Origin: a virus | Lineage: Duplodnaviria; Heunggongvirae; Uroviricota; Caudoviricetes | IMG/VR virus record: IMGVR_UViG_3300045988_138709 | DNA length: 40,733 nt | Strand: one strand, 5' to 3' | Notes under the pieces: model-generated | The model's database searches: none | Told to the model about the DNA's origin: nothing | The model's input: the letters and a program-made list of their open reading frames with translations, nothing else | Translations under genes and position numbers: made by a program | In this document: one piece after another, positions 115 to 40,733 of the stretch | How positions within the stretch are numbered: the first letter of the stretch is position 1 | Layout: each line of letters begins with the position of its first letter

Positions 115-190
115 GCCGATATAGCTCAGTTGGTAGAGCAGCGCATTCGTAATGCGAAGGTCGTAGGTTCGACTCCTATTATCGGCACCA
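115..190 (+). tRNA. thrW: tRNA-Thr (anticodon CGU), 76 nt, ends in CCA
   Basis: Seen in sequence: GCCGATATAGCTCAG...anticodon loop TTCGTAA...GGTTCGACTCC T-arm...CACCA; cloverleaf folds by eye. thrW identity is from recall, not a search. Confidence 0.85.
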
Positions 191-204
191 TTTAAATCAA
201 TAAG

Positions 205-1368
205 TTACACATCATTAGTACCTTCCTTATTTTTTGACTGGGACAAATTTGGGACCGATGGGTTCAGGATCGAGTCTATTTGCCGTGCGTGTTCGGTAAG
301 GTGATTAGGTGCAAGGTGAGCATATCGACGAACCATTTCGATAGACTCCCAGCCTCCCATTTCCTGTAACACTGACAACGGGACTCCGGCTTGAACCAGC
401 CAACTTGCCCAGGTGTGTCTCAAGTCGTGAAATCTGAAATCATCAATACCAGCCCGTCTCAGCGCCGCTTTCCAGGCTGTGTTTGCGTCATACCGCATCT
501 TCCTGACTGTTGGCGCTTTCGTTCCGTCTGGTTTGGTACAGCTTTCCTTGTACACAAATACCCAACGGTGATGATTCCCGATTTGTTTTTTCAATACGCG
601 ACATGCAGTATCATTCAGCGCAACGCCAATTGCGCGGTTTGATTTACTCTCTTCCGGGTTTATCCATGCCACCCGGCGCTGCATATCTATTTGTTGCCAT
701 TCAAGGTTGATGATGTTCGAGCGTCTTAGGCCTGTTGCCAGTGCAAATTCAACAACAGACTTTAATGGCTCCGGACATTCATCAATCAGCCTTTGTGCTT
801 CATGGGGCTCCAGCCAGCGGATCCGTTTATTCTTTGGTTGGGGCACTTTAATAATTGGTGCCTTATCCAGCATTTTCCATTCACGCTCTGCGGCTCTTAG
901 TAGGGCCTTTATAAATGAAAGATGCGTAGCCTTCGTTGCAACGGACGCTGGTTTTGGCGTGTATTCTGGAACAGGTTTCCCTTTTTTTCTGCATGCTTCT
1001 GCCCTGAGTTTCCAGTTTTCCTCATGACGCCGGTTCGTCATTTTCTGCATTGCTGAATAAATTTTTGATTCAGTAATGTCTCTTAGTTGCATTCCTGCGA
1101 AATGTTGAAGCCAGAATCCGATCCGGCTTTTGTCATCGTCCAGTGATTTTTTATGTGCTTTCTCTTCAAGCCACCTGACACACGCTTCCTCGAACGTTAT
1201 ATCAGGTATTTCACCAAGTTTGCTGACCCGCCATGCTTCAGCCTTTAGCTTGTCATGGAGTTCTGTCGCCTGCCTTTTGTCCTTTGTTCCAAGAGACTGT
1301 TTAAATCTTTTACCGTTCGGCAATGTGAAACTGGCGTACCATATTTCACCTCTGCGGAAGAGTGACAT
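205..1368 (-). CDS. int: Tyrosine-type phage integrase
   Basis: 387 aa; C-terminal catalytic motifs [10 protein letters not shown]...[15 protein letters not shown]; N-terminus [14 protein letters not shown] typical of tRNA-targeting prophage integrases; adjacent to tRNA. Confidence 0.9.
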
Positions 1369-1595: not shown

Positions 1596-1900
1596 TATTT
1601 CACCTCTTGCTGTGACATTGTTGAAAAATGGATACCAGCTCGTTGCTGCCAGACGATCCAACCGAGAGTCATATCCCATGCCATGTATTCGTTATCGCCG
1701 TTTTTTGCTCTCCGACGATCTACTAAGTCACCGAAACGCTTTTCCATGAATAATTCATAAGCTTCGCGTTCATCTGGTTCTACTTCCAGAGATAGGAGTG
1801 CGATTTCATAAGCACGGCGCTCAATATCGTCTCGCACGTCAAGGCTGCTGATACGCTCTTTAATTTCTTTAATCAGTTCTTTGTCGGTAAAAGTGGTCAT
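1595..1900 (-). CDS. Hypothetical small acidic phage protein
   Basis: 101-aa ORF, translationally coupled on both sides (1-nt stop/start overlaps). No recognisable motif. Confidence 0.5.
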   Translation of the reverse strand: MTTFTDKELIKEIKERISSLDVRDDIERRAYEIALLSLEVEPDEREAYELFMEKRFGDLVDRRRAKNGDNEYMAWDMTLGWIVWQQRAGIHFSTMSQQEVK

Positions 1901-2262
1901 TATGCTCCAGCCTCCGGTGCTTTTGGCATTACTGCCCAGTGAGTGATATTGACGTTTTCAAGGTCCCCGACCTGAAATGTCCACTGCCATTCTCCGGTTT
2001 CTTTTTGTCCCCAGGTGTACCAGAGAGAACGCCAGCCAATTAGCCAGCCTTCTCCGTTAGCATCGAATAACAAAACACTTTCATTTGCTGGTGGCAGTTC
2101 AGTTGACACTGGTATTACTTTGTTTTCCTGTGCTGCATATTTAGCTTCAAGCGCATCGAATTTACGCACCAGGTATTCAGCATCTGTTTCATTTACTTTC
2201 AGATCTCGCGGTACACATCTCCCACGAAGAAACCCTTCCATTTCGAAAACATTCATGCGCAT
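1900..2262 (-). CDS. Hypothetical phage protein
   Basis: 120-aa ORF in same-strand operon, overlaps neighbours by a few nt. No motif recognised. Confidence 0.5.
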   Translation of the reverse strand: MRMNVFEMEGFLRGRCVPRDLKVNETDAEYLVRKFDALEAKYAAQENKVIPVSTELPPANESVLLFDANGEGWLIGWRSLWYTWGQKETGEWQWTFQVGDLENVNITHWAVMPKAPEAGA

Positions 2263-2789
2263 TTGCGTAACTCCGATAACTCGTTAAAGCGTTCCATAAA
2301 CATCCCGTAGGCATGGCCCGGTGCCAGTGGAATCACGTTGAACATCTCTGTTGCCGGGATACCTTCCAGTACAGGCCAGAAAGAGCCATCATCAAGCCCG
2401 AGATCGCGGCGTTCGGTTGCCAGCATGATGAGATCGGCATATTTCACGGGCGTACTCATAACTGGAGGTAACCCGTATTTCTCACGGATTACGGCGTCTA
2501 TTTTTTCTTCCATTTGTTTATAGTCAGGAAGAAGGCGTTTCAGTGGTGCGGGAATGTCCTGGCAATACGCTTCTGTTGCATCATGCATTAACGCTTCAAA
2601 AGCAAATTCCTGCGGCACCAGCTGGCTGCAAAGAACCGCATGTTGGGCGACGCTGTAGAAGTGCGAAAGATGACCGGCAAAGCGACAGATATTTGAAAGG
2701 GAAACCGCGATATCGTTAATATCGATGTCGTCTTTATTTATCCTGTCATAATAAAAATGCTTCCCGGAAAAAGTTTTAATAAATGACAT
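2253..2789 (-). CDS. HD-domain phosphohydrolase (YfdR-like 5'-deoxynucleotidase family)
   Basis: HD signature ...SVAQHAV...ALMHDATEAY...; start moved to internal ATG (MSFIKTF...) from the longer ORF 2253..2816. Similarity to E. coli CPS-53 YfdR is from recall. Confidence 0.75.
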   Translation of the reverse strand: MSFIKTFSGKHFYYDRINKDDIDINDIAVSLSNICRFAGHLSHFYSVAQHAVLCSQLVPQEFAFEALMHDATEAYCQDIPAPLKRLLPDYKQMEEKIDAVIREKYGLPPVMSTPVKYADLIMLATERRDLGLDDGSFWPVLEGIPATEMFNVIPLAPGHAYGMFMERFNELSELRKCA

Positions 2790-2916
2790 TTTGTTCTCCA
2801 CGTATATGCGCTGCACCGCGCTGAATTCTGGTAAAAAGAATCCCTCACCATCCGGCGATTATTGAGTAAATTACGTTTCCATAAATGCCCCCGCAGGGGC
2901 ATTTGCAGTAATGAAA

Positions 2917-3741
2917 TCAGGCGGTGAAAGTACCAATAAAGGTTTCTACTTTGCTGTCCTTGAATTTCTCAACAAGCAGATCACGAAATTCGTTAGCCAT
3001 TTCTTCCTGCACCGCCTCCAGCTGAATAATGCGCAGAACCAGTACAGGACGATCGCCAGTGATAATACTGAGGCGTAATTTAAACGGACGTTCTTTCAGA
3101 CCTTCAAACGGAACGCATTTAAATTCAAATGCCACTGGCATAATGTCTTTGGTCTTCGCTTCGACAGACTCCATCAGGGAGCGTTTGCCGCTGAAGTCAT
3201 TATCTTCAAAATCAGCGGTCTGGTTTGCTTCAATCGTGATTTTACGGACAGCCGCAGCCGCTTTTGTTGCCTGAATAGCGTCACCATTAGCATCAAAGCC
3301 CACAAGATAGTCGGCCCAGTCTTCAATCCATTCTGCCAGTGACTTCTGGGAGTTACGCTCGCCGTTAACAGACAACAGAGCAGAGAACGGTGCTGTCTTT
3401 TTCAGTTTGAGTGTGGCGGTGTTATCTGCGTGACCTGGTTCATCAATAGTACCCAGGTTAAGCACACTGACGGCACGCATATTATCAGCATCGATAAAGC
3501 AGCGGGTGCCTTCATCTGCAAGATCTTTAGAATAACGGGTAAAGTCATCGATGCTGGCAGTGGAAAGCGCACCACGGAAACGGAAGCGATTTAAATTAAA
3601 TTTTTCCAGATCATGAATGCGGAAATTCTCAGGCAATGCCACAGCATCGGCACCAATCTTACTGATAATTTCATTAACACCCTGAGCAGAAATAAGGGCA
3701 TGGATTTGATTAATTGCGGTTGCGTCTAAGTTCTGAGACAT
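2917..3741 (-). CDS. DUF2303 / YfdQ-like prophage protein
   Basis: 274-aa ORF with GAGGA RBS ahead of ATG; resemblance to CPS-53 YfdQ from recall; function unknown. Confidence 0.7.
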
Positions 3742-3806
3742 AATAAGTCCTCACTATATAAAGATATTCAGTGATGAGATAAATAATCAGTTAATTAAAA
3801 ACGATA

Positions 3807-4169
3807 TTAACGACCTGCTGCGCGGAGTTTTCCGTCAGGTTCACCGGCAAGAGTCAGTAACTGTCCCTGGTCTTCCTGCAGAATAGTCAGGCGACCACCG
3901 CGATTGACATACATCGGCGTTTCGGTGGTGTCTTCTTCGGAAATTTTCCCGCGGTTAGTCGGGCGAACATATGAGAGTTTGTGTTTGATTTTCACTCGGT
4001 TCTCATCAAACGGTTCGATTTCCAGGTTGAGCGAGACCTTACCTTTGGTTTTCGTGTTCATCACACCGGAAGCGACTTCACTGAGAACTGCGCCGATTTT
4101 GGTTTCAAATACGCCGCCGTCCAGCTCCCCGATAAATGCCTGCACATCAGTACTGCGTTCGCTAGCCAT
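3807..4169 (-). CDS. YfdP-like small prophage protein
   Basis: Internal start MASERSTDVQAF... (aa 107 of ORF 3807..4487). The N-terminal extension of the long ORF runs through a hairpin-rich non-coding block and is rejected. Confidence 0.6.
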   Translation of the reverse strand: MASERSTDVQAFIGELDGGVFETKIGAVLSEVASGVMNTKTKGKVSLNLEIEPFDENRVKIKHKLSYVRPTNRGKISEEDTTETPMYVNRGGRLTILQEDQGQLLTLAGEPDGKLRAAGR

Positions 4170-5332: not shown

Positions 5333-5409
5333 GTTGCTAACGAATCATCCTGGACTTCATATGCCCCAGGCGGCTACTTCGTGGGCGTCCTGCCTGTTCG
5401 TTGTTTCTC

Positions 5410-5446
5410 TTGGGTACATTACGTATCTCAAAGGTACATTGTCAAG
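5410..5446 (-). promoter_or_regulatory. Putative OL/pL: two GGTACATT repeats and a TTGACA -35 on the minus strand
   Basis: GGTACATT at about 5413-5420 and 5433-5440 (20-bp spacing); minus-strand TTGACA at 5445..5440; -10 is weak. Position just outside the repressor terminator matches a lambdoid pL. Confidence 0.4.
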
Positions 5447-5471
5447 TATAAAAAAACCTGCCGAAGCAGGT
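5447..5471 (-). terminator. Intrinsic terminator downstream of the repressor gene
   Basis: Minus-strand ACCTGC-TTCG-GCAGGT followed by a T7 run, immediately after the repressor stop. Confidence 0.55.
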
Positions 5472-5484
5472 TCATAAACATTGA

Positions 5485-6159
5485 TTAGGCTTTGATTTTG
5501 TATCTTCTTGGTTTTCCTGAGAAAATCACTGTACCAATTATAGAGCAATTACCGTTGATCTTAATGTAAGGCTCAGGCCAGTTTGGGTTTAACGCTTTGA
5601 GATAACGCTGTGTCCCATCTTCTATTAACCTTTTGAAGGTGGTTTCACCTGTATCGTGCATCAATGCAATAACGTCGTCACCGTGGCAGGCAGGTACTTC
5701 AGGATCGACAAAAATCATGTCTCCCGGGCGGTACTCATCAATCATTGAATCACCTATCACCCGCAAGATATAAGTCATTTCCCCACAGGGTACAGGGCAG
5801 GGATACGTTTCTGCTGTGCTCAAATCAACCTCAGAATATCCAACTTCTTTCCATGCTCCGGCCTGTACCCATGATATGACAGGGACTAATGTGATTTGTT
5901 TATTAGTGATTGAAACATCAGGTTTTTTTGTGATGTTCGTTGTCTGGTGTTCTTGATCGAGCCATCCGACAGGTAGGTCGAAACATTTTTCGATGTGTCG
6001 TGCCATGCTGTCACCGATATTTTTAGTAGCACCATCTCCCATAAACCTGCTGGTCTGGGTTGGCTCGCGATCAATCATAGTGGCAAAGGAAGAATTCCCG
6101 CCAACACCATCTCTCAGTTTTCTGGCGTTAGACCGCCGGATGTCATGGATTGTTTTCAT
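5485..6159 (-). CDS. cI: CI-like phage repressor (N-terminal HTH plus C-terminal S24 LexA-like peptidase domain)
   Basis: 224 aa; C-terminal autocleavage-domain motifs (...VISWVQAGAW..., GDSM, ...TFKRL...); divergent from the Cro-like gene; no obvious SD ahead of its ATG. Confidence 0.85.
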   Translation of the reverse strand: MKTIHDIRRSNARKLRDGVGGNSSFATMIDREPTQTSRFMGDGATKNIGDSMARHIEKCFDLPVGWLDQEHQTTNITKKPDVSITNKQITLVPVISWVQAGAWKEVGYSEVDLSTAETYPCPVPCGEMTYILRVIGDSMIDEYRPGDMIFVDPEVPACHGDDVIALMHDTGETTFKRLIEDGTQRYLKALNPNWPEPYIKINGNCSIIGTVIFSGKPRRYKIKA

Positions 6160-6169
6160 AACGAAATTA

Positions 6170-6249
6170 AAACCCTTGTACCGTTAAGGTACAAGTATCT
6201 TGAAGGTTCATTTCAATCATGTAATATGTACACCGGAGGTACATATTGT
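6170..6249. promoter_or_regulatory. OR region: two palindromic operators plus pR (TTGAAG-16-TAATAT)
   Basis: Palindromes CTTGTACC-N5-GGTACAAG (about 6175-6195) and ATATGTAC-N7-GTACATAT (about 6224-6246, overlapping the -10 at 6222-6227); -35 TTGAAG at about 6200-6205. Confidence 0.55.
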
Positions 6250-6450
6250 ATGAAAGCGTATTGGGACTCTTTAACCAAAGAACAGCAGGGCGAGTTGGCC
6301 GGAAAAGTTGGCTCAACACCTGGCTACTTACGGCTGGTTTTCAATGGCTATAAAAAAGCCAGTTTTGTGCTGGCTAAAAAACTTGAGCAATGCACGTCAG
6401 GTGCAATTACGAAATCTGACTTAAGACCGGATATCTATCCGAAAGATTAG
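6250..6450 (+). CDS. cro: Cro-like HTH regulator
   Basis: 66-aa protein from internal ATG (MKAYWDSLTKEQQGELAGKVGSTPGYLRLVFNG...) of ORF 5995..6450; sits directly behind pR/operator, divergent from the repressor. Confidence 0.7.
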   Translation: MKAYWDSLTKEQQGELAGKVGSTPGYLRLVFNGYKKASFVLAKKLEQCTSGAITKSDLRPDIYPKD

Positions 6451-6481
6451 CAGAACACTTTCAATTTTTAACCACAGAACG

Positions 6482-7045
6482 ATGAGGCTAATCGTGGGTA
6501 AGCATCACTGGAAAATAGAAAAACAGCCTGAGTGGTACGTGAAAGCTGTCAGAAAAACTATCGCGGCGTTGCCGGGGGGTTACGCTGAAGCGGCTGACTG
6601 GCTCGATGTAACAGAAAACGCTTTATTCAACCGCCTTCGTGCAGATGGCGATCAGATTTTCCCGCTGGGATGGGCAATGGTTTTACAGCGTGCTGGTGGC
6701 ACTCACTTCATTGCTGATGCTGTGGCGCAGTCTGCAAATGGCGTCTTTGTGTCTCTTCCTGACGTCGAGGATGTGGACAACGCCGATATTAACCAGCGTC
6801 TGCTGGAAGTCATTGAACAGATCGGCAGTTATTCAAAACAGATTCGTTCAGCAATCGAAGACGGTGTAGTGGAACCGCATGAGAAGACAGCAATTAACGA
6901 CGAGCTGTACCTCTCAATTTCGAAGCTGCAGGAGCATGCAGCACTGGTCTACAAAATCTTTTGCGTTTCAGAAAGTAGTGGCGCCCGCGAGTGTGCAGCT
7001 CCGGGCGCCGTGGCGTGTCGTGACTGTGGAGAAACTAACGCATGA
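6482..7045 (+). CDS. Putative CII-like regulatory protein
   Basis: 187-aa ORF in the position of a lambdoid cII; family assignment is a weak recollection (CP76-type CII) without motif proof. Confidence 0.45.
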
Positions 7046-7380
7046 ACAGTTTAACAACACACTACCGTCGCTCGCAACTGATTGCGCTTCCTGTACCGGG
7101 TGGAAAAGCGAAGGTGGAATATTGCTATGCAGTGAATGTACCAGGTGACAGGGAAATTGTAACCCACAGCTTTGCAGAGTGGGCTGTGGGGGATTTCAAC
7201 CGGCAGAAGGAGACAGTCCTTTGCGACAAGTTAACCGCTGGTTCAAAGATCACTACGGAGTGCCCGTCAGAGTCATTCGTTGGGAGCCGGAAACACAACG
7301 GGTTATCTACCTCCGCGAAGGCTATGAGCATGAGTGCTTCAGTCCGCTCGAACAGTTTCGTCGTAAATTCAGGGAAATAG
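7042..7380 (+). CDS. Hypothetical protein; likely frame-disrupted (continues in ORF 7179..7400)
   Basis: ATGA overlap with the upstream gene. The first ~60 aa look protein-like, then a low-complexity Ser-rich tail, while the protein-like sequence continues in the +1-shifted ORF 7179..7400. Confidence 0.4.
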
Positions 7381-7389
7381 AGGTCGGTC

Positions 7390-8331
7390 ATGAGCACTAA
7401 ATTAACCGGCTATGTATGGGATGGTTGCGCAGCGTCAGGCATGAAATTATCCAGCGTGGCAATTATGGCCCGCCTGGCTGATTTCAGTAATGACGAAGGT
7501 GTGTGCTGGCCATCAATTGAAACTATTGCCCGTCAGATTGGCGCGGGGATGAGTACCGTCAGGACGGCTATCGCACGGCTGGAAGCAGAAGGCTGGTTAA
7601 CGCGTAAGGCGCGTCGCCAGGGTAACCGCAATGCGTCGAATGTTTATCAGCTTAACGTTGCGAAGCTTCAGGCAGCGGCATTTTCTCAACTGTCAGATTC
7701 TGACCCGTCAAAATCTGACGCATCAAAATCTGACCCGTCAAAATTTGATGCGTCGAAATCTGGCAAAAAAGCGGGTTTTCACCCGTCAGAATCTGGCGGG
7801 GATCCGTCAGTAAAATCAAAACATGATCCGTTAGATAAAAAACCTTCTCGTCCGGACGCTTCGCAACCGGACACGCAGACGGATGAACAGGATTTTTTAA
7901 CTCGCCATCCTGATGCGGTTGTATTCAGCCCTAAAAAGCGCCAGTGGGGAACGCAGGATGATTTGACCTGCGCACAGTGGCTCTGGAAAAAAATCATTGC
8001 CCTGTACGAGCAGGCCGCCGAATGTGACGGCGAGGTGGTTCGTCCCAAAGAACCGAACTGGACAGCATGGGCAAACGAAATTCGCCTGATGTGTGTGCAG
8101 GATGGTCGTACTCACAAACAAATCTGCGAGATGTACAGCCGCGTCAGCCGCGATCCGTTCTGGTGCCGTAACGTGCTCAGCCCGTCGAAGTTGCGGGAAA
8201 AATGGGATGAGCTTTCCCTGCGCTTATCGCCGTCCGTCAGCACGCACACAGAAAAACGTGAAGACCCGTACTTCAAAGCCAGTTACGACAACGTGGACTA
8301 CAGCCAGATCCCGGCAGGATTCAGGGGGTGA
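7390..8331 (+). CDS. Replication initiator (lambda O-like; N-terminal HTH, repetitive linker, C-terminal domain)
   Basis: 313 aa; N-terminal HTH (...SSVAIMARLADFSNDEGVCWPSIETIARQIG...); iteron array inside the gene encodes an SDPSKSD-type linker; position after cro/cII. Confidence 0.8.
   Translation: MSTKLTGYVWDGCAASGMKLSSVAIMARLADFSNDEGVCWPSIETIARQIGAGMSTVRTAIARLEAEGWLTRKARRQGNRNASNVYQLNVAKLQAAAFSQLSDSDPSKSDASKSDPSKFDASKSGKKAGFHPSESGGDPSVKSKHDPLDKKPSRPDASQPDTQTDEQDFLTRHPDAVVFSPKKRQWGTQDDLTCAQWLWKKIIALYEQAAECDGEVVRPKEPNWTAWANEIRLMCVQDGRTHKQICEMYSRVSRDPFWCRNVLSPSKLREKWDELSLRLSPSVSTHTEKREDPYFKASYDNVDYSQIPAGFRG
7691..7797. repeat. Iteron array (5-6 copies of a ~15-bp unit, consensus CCGTCAAAATCTGAC) - candidate origin
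   Basis: Tandem units at about 7691, 7705, 7720, 7735, 7750 and 7783, followed by an A-rich stretch, all inside the O-like gene as for lambda ori. Confidence 0.65.
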
Positions 8332-8822
8332 TCATGAGTCTTTTGAATGAAGTTCAGAAATTCATTGAAGCCCATCCGGGGTGTACTTCCGGAGACATTG
8401 CGGATGCTTTTGCAGGTTACTCACGGCAGCGCGTTCTGCAGTCAGCAAGCAAGTTACGTCAGAGTGGGCGTGTGGCTCACCGTTGTGAAGGAGATACACG
8501 CAGACATTTCCCACGCCTGACTGAGAGAGCGCAGGAGCCAGAACCACAACCAGTTCGTGAAACCAGACCTGTGCGCAATTTCTATGTCGGCACTAACGAT
8601 CCCCGGGTGATTTTGTGCCTGACCCGCCAGGCGGAAGAACTGGAGTCCAGGGGCTTATACCGTCGTGCTGCAACGGTGTGGATGGCGGCATTCCGTGAAA
8701 GCCACTCCCAGCCAGAACGAAACAATTTTCTGGCGCGTCGTGAGCAGTGTTTACGGAAAAGCAGCAAGCGCGCTGTATCGGGTGATGAGTGGTATCTGTC
8801 AGGGAATTACGTGGGGGCTTAA
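8328..8822 (+). CDS. Hypothetical protein with winged-helix-like N-terminus
   Basis: 164-aa ORF, ATGA-coupled to the O-like gene. No helicase-loader motifs, so not a P/DnaC-like protein. Confidence 0.55.
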   Translation: MIMSLLNEVQKFIEAHPGCTSGDIADAFAGYSRQRVLQSASKLRQSGRVAHRCEGDTRRHFPRLTERAQEPEPQPVRETRPVRNFYVGTNDPRVILCLTRQAEELESRGLYRRAATVWMAAFRESHSQPERNNFLARREQCLRKSSKRAVSGDEWYLSGNYVGA

Positions 8823-9475
8823 TGAGTAATAAATATTGCCAGGAGCTGGTGGAACTGCGGAACAAACCAGCCCATGAACTGAAGGAAGTGGGTGATCAGT
8901 GGCGCACGCCGGACAACATTTTCTGGGGAATTAATACCCTGTTTGGCCCGTTTGTTCTGGATCTGTTCACTGACGGTGATAACGCCAAATGTGCTGCGTA
9001 TTACACGGCGGAAGACAACGCGCTGGCGCATGACTGGTCAGAACGTCTTGCGGAGCTTAAAGGGGCTGCCTTTGGTAATCCCCCATACAGCCGCGCCAGT
9101 CAGCATGAGGGGCAATACATCACCGGCATGCGTTACATCATGAAGCATGCCAGTGCCATGCGTGATAAAGGCGGGCGCTATGTTTTCCTGATCAAAGCTG
9201 CCACCAGCGAAGTGTGGTGGCCGGAAGATGCAGACCATATTGCTTTTATTCGCGGGCGTATTGGTTTTGAACTGCCTGTCTGGTTTATCCCGAAAGACGA
9301 GAAGCAGGTGCCGACAGGAGCGTTCTTCGCTGGTGCTATTGCTGTTTTCGATAAGACCTGGAAGGGACCGGCAATCAGCTACATCGGGCGCGATGAACTT
9401 GAGACATGTGGTGAGGCGTTTCTGGCGCAGGTTCGCCAGCAGGCGGAAAAACTGATCAGGGAGATGGCGGCATGA
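8822..9475 (+). CDS. Phage DNA N6-adenine methyltransferase (Dam-like)
   Basis: Motif ...FGNPPYS... (NPPY catalytic motif); start moved to ATG (MSNKYCQELV...), overlapping the upstream stop. Confidence 0.8.
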   Translation: MSNKYCQELVELRNKPAHELKEVGDQWRTPDNIFWGINTLFGPFVLDLFTDGDNAKCAAYYTAEDNALAHDWSERLAELKGAAFGNPPYSRASQHEGQYITGMRYIMKHASAMRDKGGRYVFLIKAATSEVWWPEDADHIAFIRGRIGFELPVWFIPKDEKQVPTGAFFAGAIAVFDKTWKGPAISYIGRDELETCGEAFLAQVRQQAEKLIREMAA

Positions 9476-9798
9476 CGACATTAACTCAATGCCAGCAGCA
9501 GGTGCTGGATATGCTGATTTCTTATCAGAAAGAACGTGGCTTCCCGCCAACCAATCAGGAGGTGGCTACCATGCTGGGATACCGTTCAGTGAATGCAGCG
9601 GTGGAGCATCTTCGCGCACTGGAGAAAAAAGGCGTCATCACGATAAAGCGTGGCGTGGCACGGGGGATAACGCTTCATACCGCGGTGAAGGACGACGACA
9701 GCGAGGCGGTCGGGATTATCCGCTCACTGCTTGCCGGTGAGGAAAACGCCAGGCTGCGTGCAGCCCACTGGTTACATGAGAGGGGCCTGAAAGTATGA
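9472..9798 (+). CDS. LexA N-terminal DNA-binding-domain protein (no peptidase domain)
   Basis: 108 aa; winged-HTH resembling the LexA DNA-binding domain (...NQEVATMLGYRSVNAAVEHLRALEKKGVITI...); ATGA-coupled. Confidence 0.55.
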   Translation: MTTLTQCQQQVLDMLISYQKERGFPPTNQEVATMLGYRSVNAAVEHLRALEKKGVITIKRGVARGITLHTAVKDDDSEAVGIIRSLLAGEENARLRAAHWLHERGLKV

Positions 9799-10184
9799 AG
9801 CTGATCCTGCCTTTTCCGCCCAGCGTGAACACGTACTGGCGACACCCCAACAAAGGGGCGTTTGCTGGTAAGAGCCTGATAAGCTCGGCGGGGCGAAAAT
9901 TCCAGAGCGCGGCGTGCGCAGCAATAGTTGAGCAGTTACGTCGTCTGCCGAAACCAACGTCGGCACCTGCTTCAGTGGAGATCGTGTTGTTTCCTCCGGA
10001 TAACAGGATCCGCGATCTGGACAACTATAACAAGGCGCTGTTTGACGCCCTGACCCACGCGGGGGTGTGGGAAGACGACAGTCAGGTGAAAAGAATGCTG
10101 GTGGAGTGGGGACCGGTTATCCCGGAAGGGAAGGTCGAGATCACTATCAGTAAGTACGAGAAAACGGCGGGTGCAGCCGCCTGA
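9795..10184 (+). CDS. rusA: RusA Holliday-junction resolvase
   Basis: 129 aa; MKLILPFPPSVNTYWR...RDLDNYNKALFDALTHAGVWEDDSQV matches RusA catalytic-core pattern. Confidence 0.9.
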   Translation: MKLILPFPPSVNTYWRHPNKGAFAGKSLISSAGRKFQSAACAAIVEQLRRLPKPTSAPASVEIVLFPPDNRIRDLDNYNKALFDALTHAGVWEDDSQVKRMLVEWGPVIPEGKVEITISKYEKTAGAAA

Positions 10185-10203
10185 TTAAGAGGAGAAACGA
10201 AGT

Positions 10204-11001
10204 ATGAATAATCTGATGGTTATTGATGGTATTGAAGTTCGTCGTGATGCTTATGGGCGTTACAGCCTGAACGATCTGCACAGGGCTGCTGGTTCTCTGG
10301 ATAAGCATAAGCCTGCATTCTGGCTCCGCAATGAGCAAACTGAGCGTTTAATAAGCGAGTTGCAGATTTGCAACTCGGTCAATATAGAGCCAGTTAACGT
10401 TATTCGTGGCGGAAATAACCAGGGGACGTATGTCTGCAAAGAACTGGTGTATGCCTATGCAATGTGGATCAGCCCGTCATTCCATCTGAAGGTGATCCGT
10501 ACTTTCGACATGGTAACCAGCGCACCGGAAAAATTATCCGGACAGGCTGCTGACAAGATGCAGGCTGGTGTGATTCTGCTGGACTTTATGCGCCGGGAAT
10601 TAAACCTGTCTAACTCTTCAGTGCTTGGTGCCTGCCAGAAACTCCAGGAGGCTGTTGGCTTACCGAATCTGGCACCGCGCTATGCCATTGATGCTCCTGC
10701 TGATGCACACGATGGCTCAAGTCGCCCCACGCTGTCTCTGAGTGCACTGCTGAGGCAGTATGGTATCCGCCTGACGGCTAATCAGGCATATCACCAGATG
10801 GTGAAGCTGGGGATCGTTGAACAACGCGAACGATACAGCCGTACCGCGATTAACAACATCAAAAAATTCTGGTCGCTGACGGCGAAAGGCTGCATGTTCG
10901 GCAAGAACATCACCAGTCCTGCAAATCCGCGCGAGACGCAGCCGCATTTCTTCGAATCCCGATTCCCTGAGCTGTTAAAACTGCTCGATACCGTTCATTG
11001 A
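10204..11001 (+). CDS. KilA-N domain protein
   Basis: N-terminus MVIDGIEVRRDAYGRYSLNDLHRAAG...KPAFWLRNEQTERLI typical of the KilA-N DNA-binding domain; C-terminal domain unassigned. Confidence 0.75.
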   Translation: MNNLMVIDGIEVRRDAYGRYSLNDLHRAAGSLDKHKPAFWLRNEQTERLISELQICNSVNIEPVNVIRGGNNQGTYVCKELVYAYAMWISPSFHLKVIRTFDMVTSAPEKLSGQAADKMQAGVILLDFMRRELNLSNSSVLGACQKLQEAVGLPNLAPRYAIDAPADAHDGSSRPTLSLSALLRQYGIRLTANQAYHQMVKLGIVEQRERYSRTAINNIKKFWSLTAKGCMFGKNITSPANPRETQPHFFESRFPELLKLLDTVH

Positions 11002-11002
11002 G

Positions 11003-11998
11003 GTGACCGTGAGAGCACTACTGACCCCTGAAATTGCCCCGCGTATGGGGATTGTATTGTTCAGGCCAGGTTCAGAGCTGATGCCCCTGTTTATGCAGGG
11101 GCGTGTCCTGCTGGAGCCTGAGCCGGAACGTTATTCATCTTTCGCCAGTGGTGCCGTTCCGGCGGCATCACAACCGCTGGCGGATGATCCTGCCGTTCGG
11201 GCCGTGTTCCGCAATGAGGCAGTGATCCGTCGTGCTGGTGGCGTGGAATGTCTTGAAAGCTGGTTACTTCGTGAAAAGGGCTGTCAGTGGCCTCATTCCG
11301 ACTGGCACAGCGAGAACATGACCACAATGCGGCACGCTCCGGGAGCAATTCGTCTGTGCTGGCACTGCGATAACCAGCTGCGTGACCAGTTCACGGAACG
11401 GCTGGAATCAATGGCAACGGATAACTGTGCCCGCTGGGTGTTGTCTGTTGTGCGTCGGGATCTCGGTTTTGATGATAGTCACGTTGTGACAATGCCGGAA
11501 CTGTGCTGGTGGCTGATTCGTAATGACCTGGCGGATGCCTTACCGGAAAGTGCAGCCCGTAAGGCACTGAGATTACCAAAGCCTATTGTGCCGTCTGTCA
11601 CCCGGGAAAGTGACCTTGTGCCTTCGGTTCCTGCCACCAGCATCATCCAGGATAAGGCGAAAAAGGTGCTGGCGCTGAAAGTGGATCCGGAGTCGCCGGA
11701 GTCTTTTATGTTACGCCCAAAACGTCGCCGCTGGGTTAATGAAAAGTACACGCGCTGGGTTAAGACACAGCCGTGTGCATGTTGTGGAAAGCCCGCTGAT
11801 GATCCCCACCACCTGATAGGTTACGGTCAGGGTGGAATGGGAACAAAAGCGCATGACCTTTTTGTGTTGCCTTTGTGCAGAAAGCATCACGACGAGCTGC
11901 ATGCGGATACCGTGGCATTTGAAGAAAAGTATGGCTCCCAGCTGGAGCTGATATTTCGTTTTATCGATCGCGCGCTGGCAATTGGCGTGCTGGCCTGA
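11003..11998 (+). CDS. DUF968-like protein with C-terminal Cys/His (HNH-like) cluster
   Basis: 331 aa; C-terminal ...CACCGKPADDPHHL...CRKHHDELH...; common in lambdoid nin regions (recall). Confidence 0.65.
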   Translation: MTVRALLTPEIAPRMGIVLFRPGSELMPLFMQGRVLLEPEPERYSSFASGAVPAASQPLADDPAVRAVFRNEAVIRRAGGVECLESWLLREKGCQWPHSDWHSENMTTMRHAPGAIRLCWHCDNQLRDQFTERLESMATDNCARWVLSVVRRDLGFDDSHVVTMPELCWWLIRNDLADALPESAARKALRLPKPIVPSVTRESDLVPSVPATSIIQDKAKKVLALKVDPESPESFMLRPKRRRWVNEKYTRWVKTQPCACCGKPADDPHHLIGYGQGGMGTKAHDLFVLPLCRKHHDELHADTVAFEEKYGSQLELIFRFIDRALAIGVLA

Positions 11999-36692: not shown

Positions 36693-36746
36693 TGCAGAAA
36701 TAACGAGCAAATGGCATCATTCCTGCTTTTGTCAGGGAGATCCACC

Positions 36747-37301
36747 ATGCTTATTGGCTATGTACGCGTATCAACAAATGACCAGAACACCGATCTACAA
36801 CGTAATGCGTTGAACTGTGTAGGATGTGGGCTGATTTTTGAAGACAAGATAAGCGGTACGAAGTCCGAAAGGCCCGGACTGAAAAAACTGCTCAGGACAT
36901 TATCGGCAGGTGACACTCTGGTTGTCTGGAAGCTGGACAGGTTAGGGCGCAGTATGCGGCATCTTGTTACGCTGATAGAAGAGTTGCGCCAGCGTGGCGT
37001 GAATTTCCGAAGCCTGACTGACAGTATTGATACCAGTACCCCAATGGGCCGTTTCTTTTTTCATGTCATGGGTGCCCTAGCTGAAATGGAACGAGAACTG
37101 ATTGTTGAACGAACAAAAGCTGGACTGGAAGCTGCTCGCGCACAGGGACGAATTGGTGGACGTCGTCCCAAACTTACACCAGAACAATGGGCGCAGGCCG
37201 GGCGATTAATTGCATCAGGCGTTCCTCGCCAGAAGGTGGCGATCATCTATGATGTTGGTATATCGACACTGTATAAGAAGTTTCCGGTCGGAGATAAATG
37301 A
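36747..37301 (+). CDS. pin: Site-specific DNA invertase (serine recombinase, Pin/Gin/Hin family)
   Basis: Start MLIGYVRVSTNDQ (catalytic Ser in the canonical N-terminal motif), GGGAGA RBS; C-terminal HTH; adjacent to the crossover site. Confidence 0.9.
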   Translation: MLIGYVRVSTNDQNTDLQRNALNCVGCGLIFEDKISGTKSERPGLKKLLRTLSAGDTLVVWKLDRLGRSMRHLVTLIEELRQRGVNFRSLTDSIDTSTPMGRFFFHVMGALAEMERELIVERTKAGLEAARAQGRIGGRRPKLTPEQWAQAGRLIASGVPRQKVAIIYDVGISTLYKKFPVGDK

Positions 37302-37303
37302 AA

Positions 37304-37339
37304 CCGTAGCACGTCGTATGCAAGAAGATCGTGCTGCGG
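37304..37339. repeat. Hairpin-forming repeat, copy 1 (10-bp stem, 16-nt loop)
   Basis: CCGTAGCACG-TCGTATGCAAGAAGATC-CGTGCTGCGG directly after the pin stop; near-identical second copy at 38317-38350. Confidence 0.6.
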
Positions 37340-37361
37340 TTTATGCTTATCACTTAAAGAC

Positions 37362-38231
<870 letters not shown>

Positions 38232-38316
38232 CTAACCCTTTGAATTTACATAGCGCAAAAAGATACCTTTCCTCATAATGTGAGCTAATTTTATGTTTCG
38301 TTTGATGATCGGGTCG

Positions 38317-38350
38317 GTCTCGAAACCCGTAGCCACGTCGTATGCAAGAA
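38317..38350. repeat. Hairpin-forming repeat, copy 2
   Basis: CCGTAGCCACG-TCGTATGCAAGAA-CGTGCTACGG; same orientation as copy 1, so the two bracket the GIY-YIG gene. Confidence 0.6.
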
Positions 38351-38734
38351 CGTGCTACGGCTGGCTGGTGAACTTCCGATAGTGCGAGTATTGAATGATT
38401 TCCAACTGTTATCGATTTTGCGTATTTTTTGCATGAGAGGATTTTTACCTCCTCCCACCGATCCTCCATGGCTTTACGCCAGTGTCTCTGGTCTGCTATG
38501 TGCCAAGAGCGGACGTTAGAAGTAAAAAAGCATCTTTACAAGCGGGTTGTTGGGGAGAGTTTTGTTGCGTTCGCCACAACTCTTGAGAATGCTGCTATTT
38601 ATTATGGTAGTATTGACAGCTAAAATTTATAATGATTAGCGACTCAATAGCCAGTTCAAGCCAGATTTTGATGGGACACTAATGAAATCCTCCCGCACTA
38701 TTGCGGTATATTCATACCCACTCGAGCATCTTTA

Positions 38735-39259
38735 GTGTTAACAAGGAATGAAATCGTGACAGAATTTCTTGAAAAAATGTTTGATCGTGTTTATTCGGAG
38801 AAAGACTTCAGCATTAACATCGCAATATTTGTCTCCGGAATCGCAGGAGTTACCTGTTATCTTATTCTTCGCGATTATGTACTGACTCTGTTTTCTTTTA
38901 TTATTATTTTTCCAGTTGTAAAGATTATTGCGGGAGGATTATATGTGCGAATTATTACCCGCAAGGGAGAGGCAGTTGCAGAAAAACGACTGGCAACGCT
39001 TTATAATTCTCTGACTGGAAGAGAAAAAGAAGTAGTCATGCACTTTGTGACGCATGGTGGTTCTGTTATGACATGGGGACAAATGAATAGGCTTGATGAT
39101 CCTGAACCGGGTGTAGAATCTCTGGCCCGTCGGGGATTACTGAATACGTCCGTAACGATGGATGGTATGCGAGAAACGTTTGAACTAGATCTGACCCTCT
39201 TTAATTATGCATATAAGTATCACCCCCATCAGGAGAAGATGCTTACTTCAGAAGAATAA
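38735..39259 (+). CDS. Hypothetical membrane protein (two to three N-terminal TM helices)
   Basis: 174-aa ORF with GTG start (alternative in-frame GTG at about 38756 has an AAGGA RBS); hydrophobic segments INIAIFVSGIAGVTCYLIL and LTLFSFIIIFPVV; AT-rich. Confidence 0.5.
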   Translation: MLTRNEIVTEFLEKMFDRVYSEKDFSINIAIFVSGIAGVTCYLILRDYVLTLFSFIIIFPVVKIIAGGLYVRIITRKGEAVAEKRLATLYNSLTGREKEVVMHFVTHGGSVMTWGQMNRLDDPEPGVESLARRGLLNTSVTMDGMRETFELDLTLFNYAYKYHPHQEKMLTSEE

Positions 39260-39528
39260 GAAATTTTTAATCTTTATGATGGAGATCTTAAACAGGATGG
39301 ACGCCTCCCATCCCGTTTATTCAAAGAATGTAAGGTTTACAGTATATACTCCATGTAAGAGGATGAACAGAAATCTATTCCTCCATATTAGCAATAATGT
39401 CATAAATTAGGCTTGCCAATTCGGTTAACAATATCTTCCGCCTCTCACGCTATAATGCCAGAAGCATTATACATTATAAAACATGAGAGGCGGACAAGAA
39501 TGCATCTTCAATCAAGGATTAATCTTAG

Positions 39529-40446
39529 TCATGGTTTGTTGCTAATATCTCTACAGTCAGGACAAATGTTAGTCCCCTCCCCAAGCCAAGAACTCATTTC
39601 CTCTTCAGGCCATTCAGCACCACAAACATCACATGTGACTTCAATTGAGCCTGAGTCTTCGGCACCGCAATACGTACAACGATATCCTGAAGTAGAATCG
39701 TTATTTTGAATCATTGTCTCATGACCACAGTAATCGCAGATATATTCTTTCCAATTAACTAACTCAAAAAACTTTGGTCTAACCCCAAGAAATGCTGCTT
39801 TTCTAGCATCAGCTACATCAAGATAACCTTCATGAACATTATGCTCATATTCGTCAGAAAGTATATTATAGGAATTAGATATTTCCTTAGAAACTTCTTT
39901 ATCTAGATCGTATAAACCAAATATATCAGAGAACTCAGCCAACCCTCTGACCAAACGCCCCATTGCCAGACGAACATGTTTAATAGTAAACGAGAATTCG
40001 TAATGCTCAATTGAATTTCTAAGATCTTTCATCCAAGCGATATCATCTAGTAACTCTTTATCAACTAAGTCCACAGAGGTTATGCTACACTTTTCATGTG
40101 TAGCTATCGATATTGCTTGATCCAAAGTAATAGTATGAGGATTTTTATGTCCTTTAATAAGTTCTTCAAAGTCGAATTCTTCAGCCTCCATTTTATAAAA
40201 AGCTTCAATAAGATTGACTTTGTCACTTTTGGCACGCTCTATTACTGCTCTGTAGCATTTTGAAAAAATCAAGTTTTCGTCTAATGTTTGAATATACATT
40301 TTCAACGTCAATTCAAAACAATGAGACAAATGTAGTATAGCAAACTTGAAAGCTTTATAATCTCCATTTTCTCCTTGCTGGAATTTTTTGATGGCTTCAT
40401 TAAAACTATCTAAAGCATTGGATTTTAGATCAAGTTTAAATTCCAT
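39529..40446 (-). CDS. HEPN-motif protein with C-terminal multi-CxxC zinc ribbon (candidate RNase-type abortive-infection effector)
   Basis: Alpha-helical N-terminal region containing R-x4-H (DLRNSIEHYEF); C-terminus CDYCGH...CTYCG...CDVCG...CPDC; start set to in-frame ATG (MEFKLDLK...), ORF track starts 3 codons upstream at GTG; AT-rich. Confidence 0.6.
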   Translation of the reverse strand: MEFKLDLKSNALDSFNEAIKKFQQGENGDYKAFKFAILHLSHCFELTLKMYIQTLDENLIFSKCYRAVIERAKSDKVNLIEAFYKMEAEEFDFEELIKGHKNPHTITLDQAISIATHEKCSITSVDLVDKELLDDIAWMKDLRNSIEHYEFSFTIKHVRLAMGRLVRGLAEFSDIFGLYDLDKEVSKEISNSYNILSDEYEHNVHEGYLDVADARKAAFLGVRPKFFELVNWKEYICDYCGHETMIQNNDSTSGYRCTYCGAEDSGSIEVTCDVCGAEWPEEEMSSWLGEGTNICPDCRDISNKP

Positions 40447-40733
40447 TGTTTTCACTTACTTTACTTGAATGGTAGAATATTTTTACATAATTAAGAACGC
40501 TGCGCTATAGCATCGGAGGTACTAACTTCCGCTCCTCGCTCATAACAGACATAAACTTCAGTTATGGCATAAAGGTATGCATGCTGGGTGGGGAAAGTAT
40601 GAAGGAAAAGAAGACTGCTGCGCCGTTTGTCGTCACGTTTATCTTCATTGGCTATGCAAGTCGTAATACAAGGTGGGACAAAACTGAGACACATAAGGCC
40701 TCGCAATGGCTTGCAAGGCTTTACATGTTTTGA

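Follow-up and report, generated by a model that had tools for sequence, protein, structure and literature searches.

The gene at positions 39529 to 40446, on the minus strand of IMG/VR virus record IMGVR_UViG_3300045988_138709, probably encodes a stand-alone, trigger-activated immunity RNase carried by a prophage. The record, a 40,733-nucleotide stretch of Caudoviricetes DNA referred to below as the window, is essentially one complete SfII/SfV-like prophage, located in Escherichia coli at tRNA-Thr. The 305-residue product (the target) has an N-terminal HEPN domain followed by a double zinc ribbon. This is the layout of the DUF3644-type HEPN and zinc-finger proteins that include PDC-S64, PDC-S19 and HEC-08, and the zinc ribbons would act as its sensor.

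In the list of open reading frames (ORFs), the coding sequence begins with ATG and ends with a stop codon at 39529-39531. An in-frame GTG lies three codons 5' of the ATG, at 40455, and the ATG form is the one annotated by RefSeq in identical E. coli copies. Such copies, labelled 'hypothetical protein', are present in 24 of 5426 complete E. coli genomes. The close homologues (n=74; approximately 300-311 residues) come from Gammaproteobacteria and some Betaproteobacteria and are all labelled hypothetical as well.

HEPN domain and predicted active site

The segments and motifs of the target are as follows.

39529..40446, minus strand: target coding sequence, 305 amino acids, ATG start
39919..40446, minus strand: HEPN domain, residues 1-176, with core helices 1 (7-26), 2 (32-55), 3 (130-148) and 4 (155-175)
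40300..40314, minus strand: E45-x3-K49 (E45-L-T-L-K49), the second HEPN active-site element, in HEPN helix 2 (32-55)
40060..40281, minus strand: subfamily-specific helical insert between HEPN helices 2 and 3, residues 56-129, from the secondary structure of the model, with conserved C64, T105 and C120
40003..40020, minus strand: predicted catalytic motif R143-N-S-I-E-H148 (Rx4H), at the C-terminal end of HEPN helix 3
~40321-40323, 40255-40257 and 40087-40089, minus strand: codons for H42, C64 and C120, respectively, conserved within the subfamily
39757..39918, minus strand: helical linker from the HEPN domain to the zinc ribbons, residues 177-230, from the model; the least conserved segment
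39532..39756, minus strand: double Cys4 zinc-ribbon module, residues 231-305 (C237/C240/C257/C260 and C272/C275/C295/C298)

A first-pass annotation of this DNA, which did not give the strand, had pointed to an RNSIEH motif in a helical region and four CxxC pairs, and had proposed a HEPN RNase fused to a zinc ribbon. Both motifs are present, at residues 143-148 and at 237, 257, 272 and 295. The proposed fold is borne out by a single-chain AlphaFold2 model built from 71 sequences, with a mean predicted local distance difference test score (pLDDT) of 90.2 and a predicted template modelling score (pTM) of 0.82, in which four core helices form the domain and the motif ends helix 3. A census of HEPN proteins places the Rx4-6H motif where helix 3 ends and the loop to helix 4 begins, and defines the domain by a bundle of four helices that has an insert between helices 2 and 3, a polar residue (N, D or H) after the arginine, and an Ex3[KR] element in helix 2 (PMC3710099). 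All four defining features, that is, the bundle with its insert, Rx4H, the polar asparagine and Ex3K, are found in the target. When known HEPN structures are set beside the model, the figures are 10.2 for AF0298, 9.7 for the HEPN toxin SO_3166 and 9.1 for Csm6, with AbiA at 8.9, the Sacsin HEPN domain at 8.4 and LsoA, at rank 39, at 6.9.

Residue conservation was counted across an alignment of 71 homologues, with a wider check on 92 distant relatives. H148, E45, K49, N10, S14, K34, R159 and R164 are invariant among the homologues, and R143 and N144 (each 70/71) and E147 (69/71) are nearly so. In the more distant set, R143, N144, H148, E45 and K49 are each kept in at least 90% of sequences, so that the Rx4H residues are conserved, as the proposal of the first-pass annotation requires, both near to and far from the target. 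The model and the alignments together thus show a HEPN fold with an intact and conserved active-site constellation. The single homologue with the catalytic arginine replaced is P0036 from Acinetobacter baumannii (L013 3128-4042), which reads VWNAIEH at the motif and may be an inactivated or repurposed copy.

The motif by itself would carry less weight. In 100,000 shuffles of the target protein, Rx4H alone appears with p=0.28 and the more restrictive R[NDH]x3H with p=0.05, while four or more CxxC pairs appear with p=3e-5. The cysteine cluster is far beyond chance and the HEPN motif alone is not; the weight given to the motif comes from the conserved residues and the predicted fold.

Within the insert-bearing subfamily, H42, C64 and C120 are either invariant or kept in at least 93% of sequences; the wider family does not conserve them. 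Around the HEPN insert they may form an additional site, whether for metal, redox or regulation.

Zinc ribbons and linker

The four CxxC pairs, CDYC, CTYC, CDVC and CPDC, are carried on beta-hairpins in the predicted models, and all eight ribbon cysteines are conserved in the homologue and distant-relative alignments, in keeping with the zinc ribbon of the first-pass annotation. Zinc-ribbon matches in Pfam and NCBIfam are all weak and below cutoff, and a sequence profile search of the PDB returned only an insignificant match to an MCM zinc ribbon (E 0.5). The HEPN core has a mean identity of 63-64%, against 36-39% for the linker and the second zinc ribbon; the linker has a mean identity of 36% among non-close homologues. 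The first zinc ribbon has 48% identity and a mean entropy of 1.19.

This division suggests a role for the C-terminal half. The most likely module for trigger sensing or oligomerisation consists of the helical linker, which varies, and the double Cys4 zinc ribbon, a proposal drawn from the pairing of a conserved HEPN core with a varying linker and second ribbon, and from the precedent of RAZR (PD-T7-4). In RAZR, the zinc finger binds ring-shaped phage proteins and the HEPN domain cleaves single-stranded RNA (Zhang et al., Nature 2026, PMC13017515); contact with the phage trigger is made by the zinc finger, which thereby determines specificity (PMC13017515). The two proteins share the same two kinds of module, zinc ribbon and HEPN, but differ in several ways. 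The zinc finger of RAZR is N-terminal and its HEPN domain C-terminal, the reverse of the order in the target. The RAZR HEPN domain is of the DUF4145 type, and its R146 and H154 have Rx7H spacing rather than Rx4H. RAZR has one zinc ribbon and the target two, and the target has no PD-T7-4 or DUF4145 match at E<=1. Ring-templated oligomerisation is a feature of RAZR; the target was compared with it by sequence and model alone.

The same HEPN RNase could instead use its ribbons to bind RNA and select a substrate, for example a particular tRNA or rRNA site, in place of sensing a phage protein. Activation would then come from expression level, from loss of a labile host factor or from a nucleotide signal. 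Nucleic-acid binding is common among zinc ribbons, the models weakly matched in Pfam and NCBIfam are the zinc ribbons of TFIIB, L37ae, RPB and NrdD, and the first ribbon is fairly well conserved, as would be expected of a module that binds a conserved substrate. However, variation is greatest in the second ribbon and the linker, the structure search yielded no analogue that binds nucleic acids, and RAZR, the only mechanistically solved defence protein with a zinc ribbon and a HEPN domain, uses its zinc finger for the trigger (PMC13017515). We regard RNA-selecting ribbons, and the modes of activation that go with them, as a minor possibility, less likely than a trigger sensor.

Relationship to PDC-S64, HEC-08 and DUF3644 proteins

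PHROG 20824, a family of unknown function, matches the target over its full length (1.7e-99). The sole PADLOC defence model that the target matches directly is PDC-S64 (PDLC05059; E 2.2e-16, 57.8 bits); a second PDC-S64 model, PDLC05058, is not matched. An exhaustive profile search of 1.84 billion representatives identified 639 relatives at E<=1e-3, and in many of these, 250-280 residues long, the helix 2-3 insert is incomplete. Model scans of 92 diverse full-length relatives gave the following matches.

PDC-S64: 91 of 92 relatives, best E 3e-39
PADLOC DUF3644: 52 of 92 relatives, best E 2.5e-13
Pfam DUF3644: 47 of 92 relatives, best E 1.6e-8
PDC-S19: 35 of 92 relatives, best E 1.7e-9
HEC-08: 29 of 92 relatives, best E 1.7e-15

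Relatives of the target align to PDC-S64 over up to approximately 240 positions. Three relatives, P0081 (31.4 bits), P0099 (29.0 bits) and P0125 (34.6 bits), exceed the gathering score of Pfam DUF3644 (PF12358; 27.6 bits), and P0081 also matches a profile of the target subfamily at 1.9e-74. The target can be aligned directly to the HEC-08-like protein P0168 (BLASTP E 4e-11, 23% identity) over residues 3-276, a span from the HEPN domain through the linker to the third CxxC pair. A 33-residue gap in that alignment falls opposite target residues 89-121; the insert of the target is approximately 33 residues longer, and the relatives of 257-280 residues, like P0168, are without these residues. The insert is probably why the target falls below detection by PF12358. 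By sequence, the homology with DUF3644 proteins is real, and the target is best placed as a divergent, outlying, insert-bearing subfamily of the DUF3644-type superfamily of HEPN proteins with a C-terminal zinc finger.

Members of this superfamily differ in how much is known about them. HEC-08 (Hma-embedded candidate 08) protects against phage, and mutating the histidine of its Rx4-6H motif (H128) abolishes defence (10.1101/2024.01.29.577857). Like the target, it is a single gene whose product has a DUF3644-type HEPN domain with Rx4-6H at the N-terminus and zinc-finger or zinc-ribbon domains at the C-terminus, and it too has a structural match to SO_3166. Relatives of the target match its model, PDLC04162, over positions 18-269 of 358. 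In contrast, the target itself has no direct hidden Markov model (HMM) match to HEC-08 and has approximately 23% identity to HEC-08-like proteins, with 305 residues set against a 358-position model. It has the longer insert, lacks the extra C-terminal region of P0168 and P0221, and is prophage cargo, whereas HEC-08 is embedded in a Hachiman operon. No mechanistic follow-up of HEC-08 was found in the literature.

HEC-08 and the PDC candidates share their origin in one guilt-by-embedding study (Payne et al., bioRxiv 2024, 10.1101/2024.01.29.577857). PDC-S64, like the target a single-gene candidate, was defined by its embedding in BREX, DISARM or type I restriction-modification loci; the best stretch of the target is limited to positions 2-88 of the 339 in its profile. 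PDC-S64 is a computational candidate with no published phenotype, and no paper mentioning it was found in the literature. The EC042_2821/DUF3644 HEPN family has been described as having a conserved Rx4-6H motif, zinc-ribbon, winged helix-turn-helix (wHTH) and restriction endonuclease (REase) fusions, and a presence in restriction-modification operons (Anantharaman et al. 2013, PMC3710099). The target shares with it the Rx4-6H motif and the zinc-ribbon fusion, and relatives of the target pass the DUF3644 gathering score; the target itself has no PF12358 match at E<=1 and has no REase or wHTH fusion.

A different kind of immunity is offered by Ishtar. Its ist1 and ist2 proteins, each the product of one gene, join a HEPN domain of the DUF4145 or DUF3644 type at the N-terminus to a beta-rich domain at the C-terminus, and they cause loss of plasmid RP4 (bioRxiv 2026, 10.64898/2026.07.06.735840). 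They resemble the target in being single genes, in having a HEPN domain with an RNxxEH motif, in their beta-rich C-terminal domain and in their location in variable regions, integrons and satellites. The target could likewise be primarily a barrier to plasmids, clearing or blocking conjugative elements with little cell death, for example by degrading the replication primer RNA. The family does occur on integrative and conjugative elements (ICEs) and other conjugative elements, where competition between elements is plausible. However, the Ishtar proteins are approximately 212-218 residues long and have no cysteine clusters, their phenotype is plasmid loss rather than phage defence, HEC-08 as the closest tested relative is anti-phage, and the gene is carried by prophages of three different types. 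The target is also not an Ishtar homologue: WP_063119594, WP_086217972 and four family-specific peptide motifs are all absent from Ishtar Table S3, and BLASTP against the E. coli Ishtar homologue WP_087897310 gives E 0.13. A primarily anti-plasmid function is therefore considered unlikely.

Genomic contexts and the question of a partner

The target and its homologues were examined in 11 contexts.

E. coli: SfII-like prophage, adjoining PD-T4-3
E. coli: ICE-like island at tRNA-Ser
Xenorhabdus: conjugative element, adjoining a transposase
Rahnella: 186-like prophage (L017 5834-7918); 80%-identical homologue directly downstream of the CI repressor gene, same strand
Pectobacterium: last gene of an integrated inovirus with Zot, secretin and G5P (L020 7658-8939), 20 bp after a 107-residue Xre_MbcA_ParS_C (antitoxin-type) gene
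Klebsiella: island with PIN_12 and a methylase/HNH/HATPase cluster
Pseudomonas: directly after a Lamassu-like Cap4-nuclease/SMC operon
Acinetobacter: 36 bp after an Mrr_cat restriction-like (Mrr-like nuclease) gene
Metagenomic contig: after a KAP NTPase, between IS91-like units
Aeromonas: small variable island
Halomonas: small variable island

No partner gene is common to these contexts, and the upstream neighbour differs in every genus, which agrees with the first-pass annotation in finding no obvious antitoxin. Neighbours such as PD-T4-3, the Lamassu-like operon, the Mrr-like nuclease, the PIN_12 cluster and the KAP NTPase, together with the places held in prophages, count in favour of an immunity role for this single travelling gene. 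A possible upstream regulator is hinted at in the Pectobacterium locus alone. The Rahnella homologue, if co-transcribed with the CI repressor gene, would be expressed in the lysogen.

The elements flanking the target within the window are these.

38735..39259, plus strand: small predicted membrane protein, 174 amino acids from GTG (167 in RefSeq), convergent to the target
39295..39313, scoring on both strands: terminator-like hairpin between the convergent target and membrane-protein genes, a pattern match from a consensus scan only

The membrane protein has no family match in Pfam, PADLOC, NCBIfam or the PHROGs. By tblastn it is found only at E. coli loci L001, L002 and L018 and at no locus from another genus. 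It was rejected as a partner or antitoxin: it is convergent and not co-transcribed, and it is confined to a near-identical E. coli block. The earlier suggestion that it, or a small RNA, might neutralise the target thus finds no footing for the protein, and for the RNA, Rfam gave no family around the target, with all matches far below gathering scores. At 39437-39494, 35 nt 3' of the target stop, is an inverted repeat whose arms are 18 nt and whose spacer is 22 nt long, and which has no T-run; the spurious miRNA-family matches in Rfam arise from this hairpin. A 71-residue minus-strand ORF at 40491-40706 was also set aside as a partner: a conserved att-proximal ORF on the plus strand, which phage-21-like lambdoids share, overlaps with it, and RefSeq does not annotate the minus-strand ORF, which is probably spurious.

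That the target is the toxin of a toxin-antitoxin pair, with the convergent membrane protein, an unannotated small ORF or an antisense RNA as antitoxin, is thus very unlikely. The membrane-protein gene is not in an operon with the target and is absent beside homologues of 87%, 80% and approximately 50% identity, at ten loci in other genera. No nucleotidyltransferase (MNT) domain or other antitoxin family was found near the target, its neighbours being the family-less convergent membrane protein and the att-proximal segment, and PDC-S64, HEC-08 and RAZR are all single-gene systems. Compared with the HepT toxins of HepT/MNT type VII pairs (e.g. SO_3166/SO_3165), the target is much larger, has a zinc-ribbon module and shows no sequence-level match. 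With no common neighbour, a membrane protein limited to E. coli and no RNA, the data therefore fit a self-contained single-gene system, as in HEC-08, PDC-S64, RAZR and Ishtar.

Prophage and cargo slot

The landmarks of the prophage and of its right end are listed here.

115..192, plus strand: tRNA-Thr(CGT) and attL core (tRNA 115-190, by ARAGORN; core 145-192, the tRNA 3' end)
205-1368, minus strand: 387-residue ORF, integrase-sized, labelled by size alone
36711..37301, plus strand: Pin/Gin-type serine invertase (Pfam Resolvase 1.5e-51, and HTH_7), pinE in RefSeq copies, bounding the tail-fibre module
37362..38186, minus strand: PD-T4-3, a LEM-3-like GIY-YIG nuclease (PADLOC 1.1e-139 over its full length; Pfam LEM-3_GIY-YIG 3.7e-14)
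38500..40550, both genes: approximately 2.05-kb mobile block with the membrane-protein gene and the target, also present inside an ICE-like island

The structural genes are approximately 97% identical to those of Shigella phages SfII, SfI, SfIV and SfV. At the right end, the gene order is tail-fibre module, Pin invertase, PD-T4-3, small membrane protein and target. In E. coli L001 and L002, 47-48 bp of the attL core recur exactly, approximately 350 bp upstream of the target ATG; placed from these loci, attR lies approximately 66 bp past the right edge of the window, and the target is therefore the last prophage gene before it. The guanine-plus-cytosine (GC) content of the target gene is 35%; the phage structural region has 55% and the window as a whole 51%.

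The slot beside attR is a hotspot for cargo swapping. Sister SfII-like prophages keep pin and PD-T4-3 and have genes for 129-residue and 488-residue hypothetical proteins in place of the membrane-protein gene and the target; in one example, L019 (E. coli 0H26), positions 5971-8142 correspond to window slot 38500-40550. With the low GC content and the place next to attR, this substantiates the AT-rich cargo position, after the tail-fibre and invertase module, that was noticed at first reading. PD-T4-3, in the same slot, is a known and validated single-gene anti-phage system. In related Shigella phages, the att-proximal slot holds O-antigen-modifying gtr genes.

The 2.05-kb block is not restricted to this prophage. 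Among the matches listed, at least ten E. coli genomes match only query positions 1801-3851 of window 36700-40733, at 99.4% identity. The ICE-like island that contains the block is at tRNA-Ser and carries DotA/TraY, RepL, two H-NS-like genes and a restriction endonuclease; in L018 (E. coli Es_ST80) the block occupies 9001-11051. The near-identity suggests a recent exchange between prophage and conjugative island.

Other features of the surroundings lie outside the two genes. In RefSeq copies, an 81-nt 'capsid protein' pseudogene fragment, at approximately 38346-38426, lies in the spacer between PD-T4-3 and the cassette and is probably a recombination scar or a mis-annotation. Window positions 40536-40733, outside the cassette, form an att-proximal segment 87-89% identical to phage-21-like lambdoid phages, where its counterpart is an annotated 51-residue putative membrane protein approximately 400 bp from attP, with predicted CII-binding sites. 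Past attR at thrW, L001 (E. coli ECCHD184) 5353-11087 encodes an FRG-domain protein and a 1061-residue DEAD/DEAH helicase and contains IS1 and IS4 remnants; this region may represent a further island of the defence type, stacked onto the same tRNA site.

Proximity to attR is also what might be seen if the protein served the phage's own life cycle, or were a catalytically silent nucleic-acid-binding regulator, and had nothing to do with immunity. The Rahnella homologue, directly downstream of its CI repressor gene on the same strand, could be viewed in this light, and some HEPN domains are non-catalytic (PMC3710099). However, the catalytic residues are almost perfectly conserved, the gene occurs in just 24 of the 5426 E. 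coli genomes while the prophage type is common and has other genes in the same slot, and the gene is also found outside prophages, in chromosomal islands and ICEs. A GC content of 35% is typical of horizontally acquired cargo. A phage-serving or regulatory role is accordingly the least probable of the explanations considered.

Proposed mechanism and points against it

As an immunity RNase, the target would most likely work as follows. The N-terminal HEPN domain would be a metal-independent RNase, probably with a composite active site across a HEPN homodimer, and would be kept latent in the lysogen. Entry of a competing phage, or possibly of a plasmid, would switch it on. The activated enzyme would cut cellular and invader RNA, translation would stop, and the infection would be aborted.

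Several observations weigh against this reading. On the side of structure, a Foldseek search of the target against the PDB gave nothing below E 0.47 and thus no significant match, and a structure search with the isolated C-terminal zinc-ribbon domain gave no specific or informative solved analogue. On the side of family membership, direct scans of the target against Pfam, NCBIfam and PADLOC at E<=1 gave no HEPN, DUF3644, DUF4145, HEC-08 or PD-T7-4 match. The PDLC05059 match is in three separate stretches, the best of which aligns target residues 3-87 with profile positions 2-88 of 339. The link to HEC-08 and DUF3644 is transitive, or runs through the pairwise alignment at E 4e-11. Despite the full-length PHROG 20824 match, tblastn of the target against 50,697 GenBank phage records found no copy. 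A consensus scan found no consensus sigma-70 promoter upstream of the target on the minus strand, where a weaker promoter is still possible. The Aeromonas and Halomonas islands contain no known defence genes. Finally, defence by the target subfamily is extrapolated from HEC-08, and the sensor role of the zinc ribbons would follow purely by analogy.

A more specific form of the proposal is doubtful. The insert-bearing, double-ribbon subfamily could be a distinct kind of sensor-effector, in which ribbons and linker template higher-order assembly on a specific phage or plasmid structure, a RAZR-like design that evolved independently in reverse order. Alternatively, the E. coli version could be a two-gene unit with the membrane protein. 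H42, C64 and C120 might constitute the extra regulatory or metal site.

Implications

The combination of HEPN domain and zinc ribbon is already catalogued, in PDC-S64, HEC-08 and DUF3644 proteins, and one relative has been shown to defend. The target does not represent a new category, and it is therefore less novel than the first-pass annotation implied. If it is an immunity RNase, the defence cargo of this SfII/SfV-like prophage would comprise two systems, PD-T4-3 and a HEPN/zinc-ribbon RNase. The PDC-S64 group, largely untested, would also gain a representative in E. coli that is amenable to experiment. Comparison with RAZR, which has the same modules in reversed order, could reveal if the coupling of zinc-ribbon sensing to HEPN cleavage is a modular design of general use.

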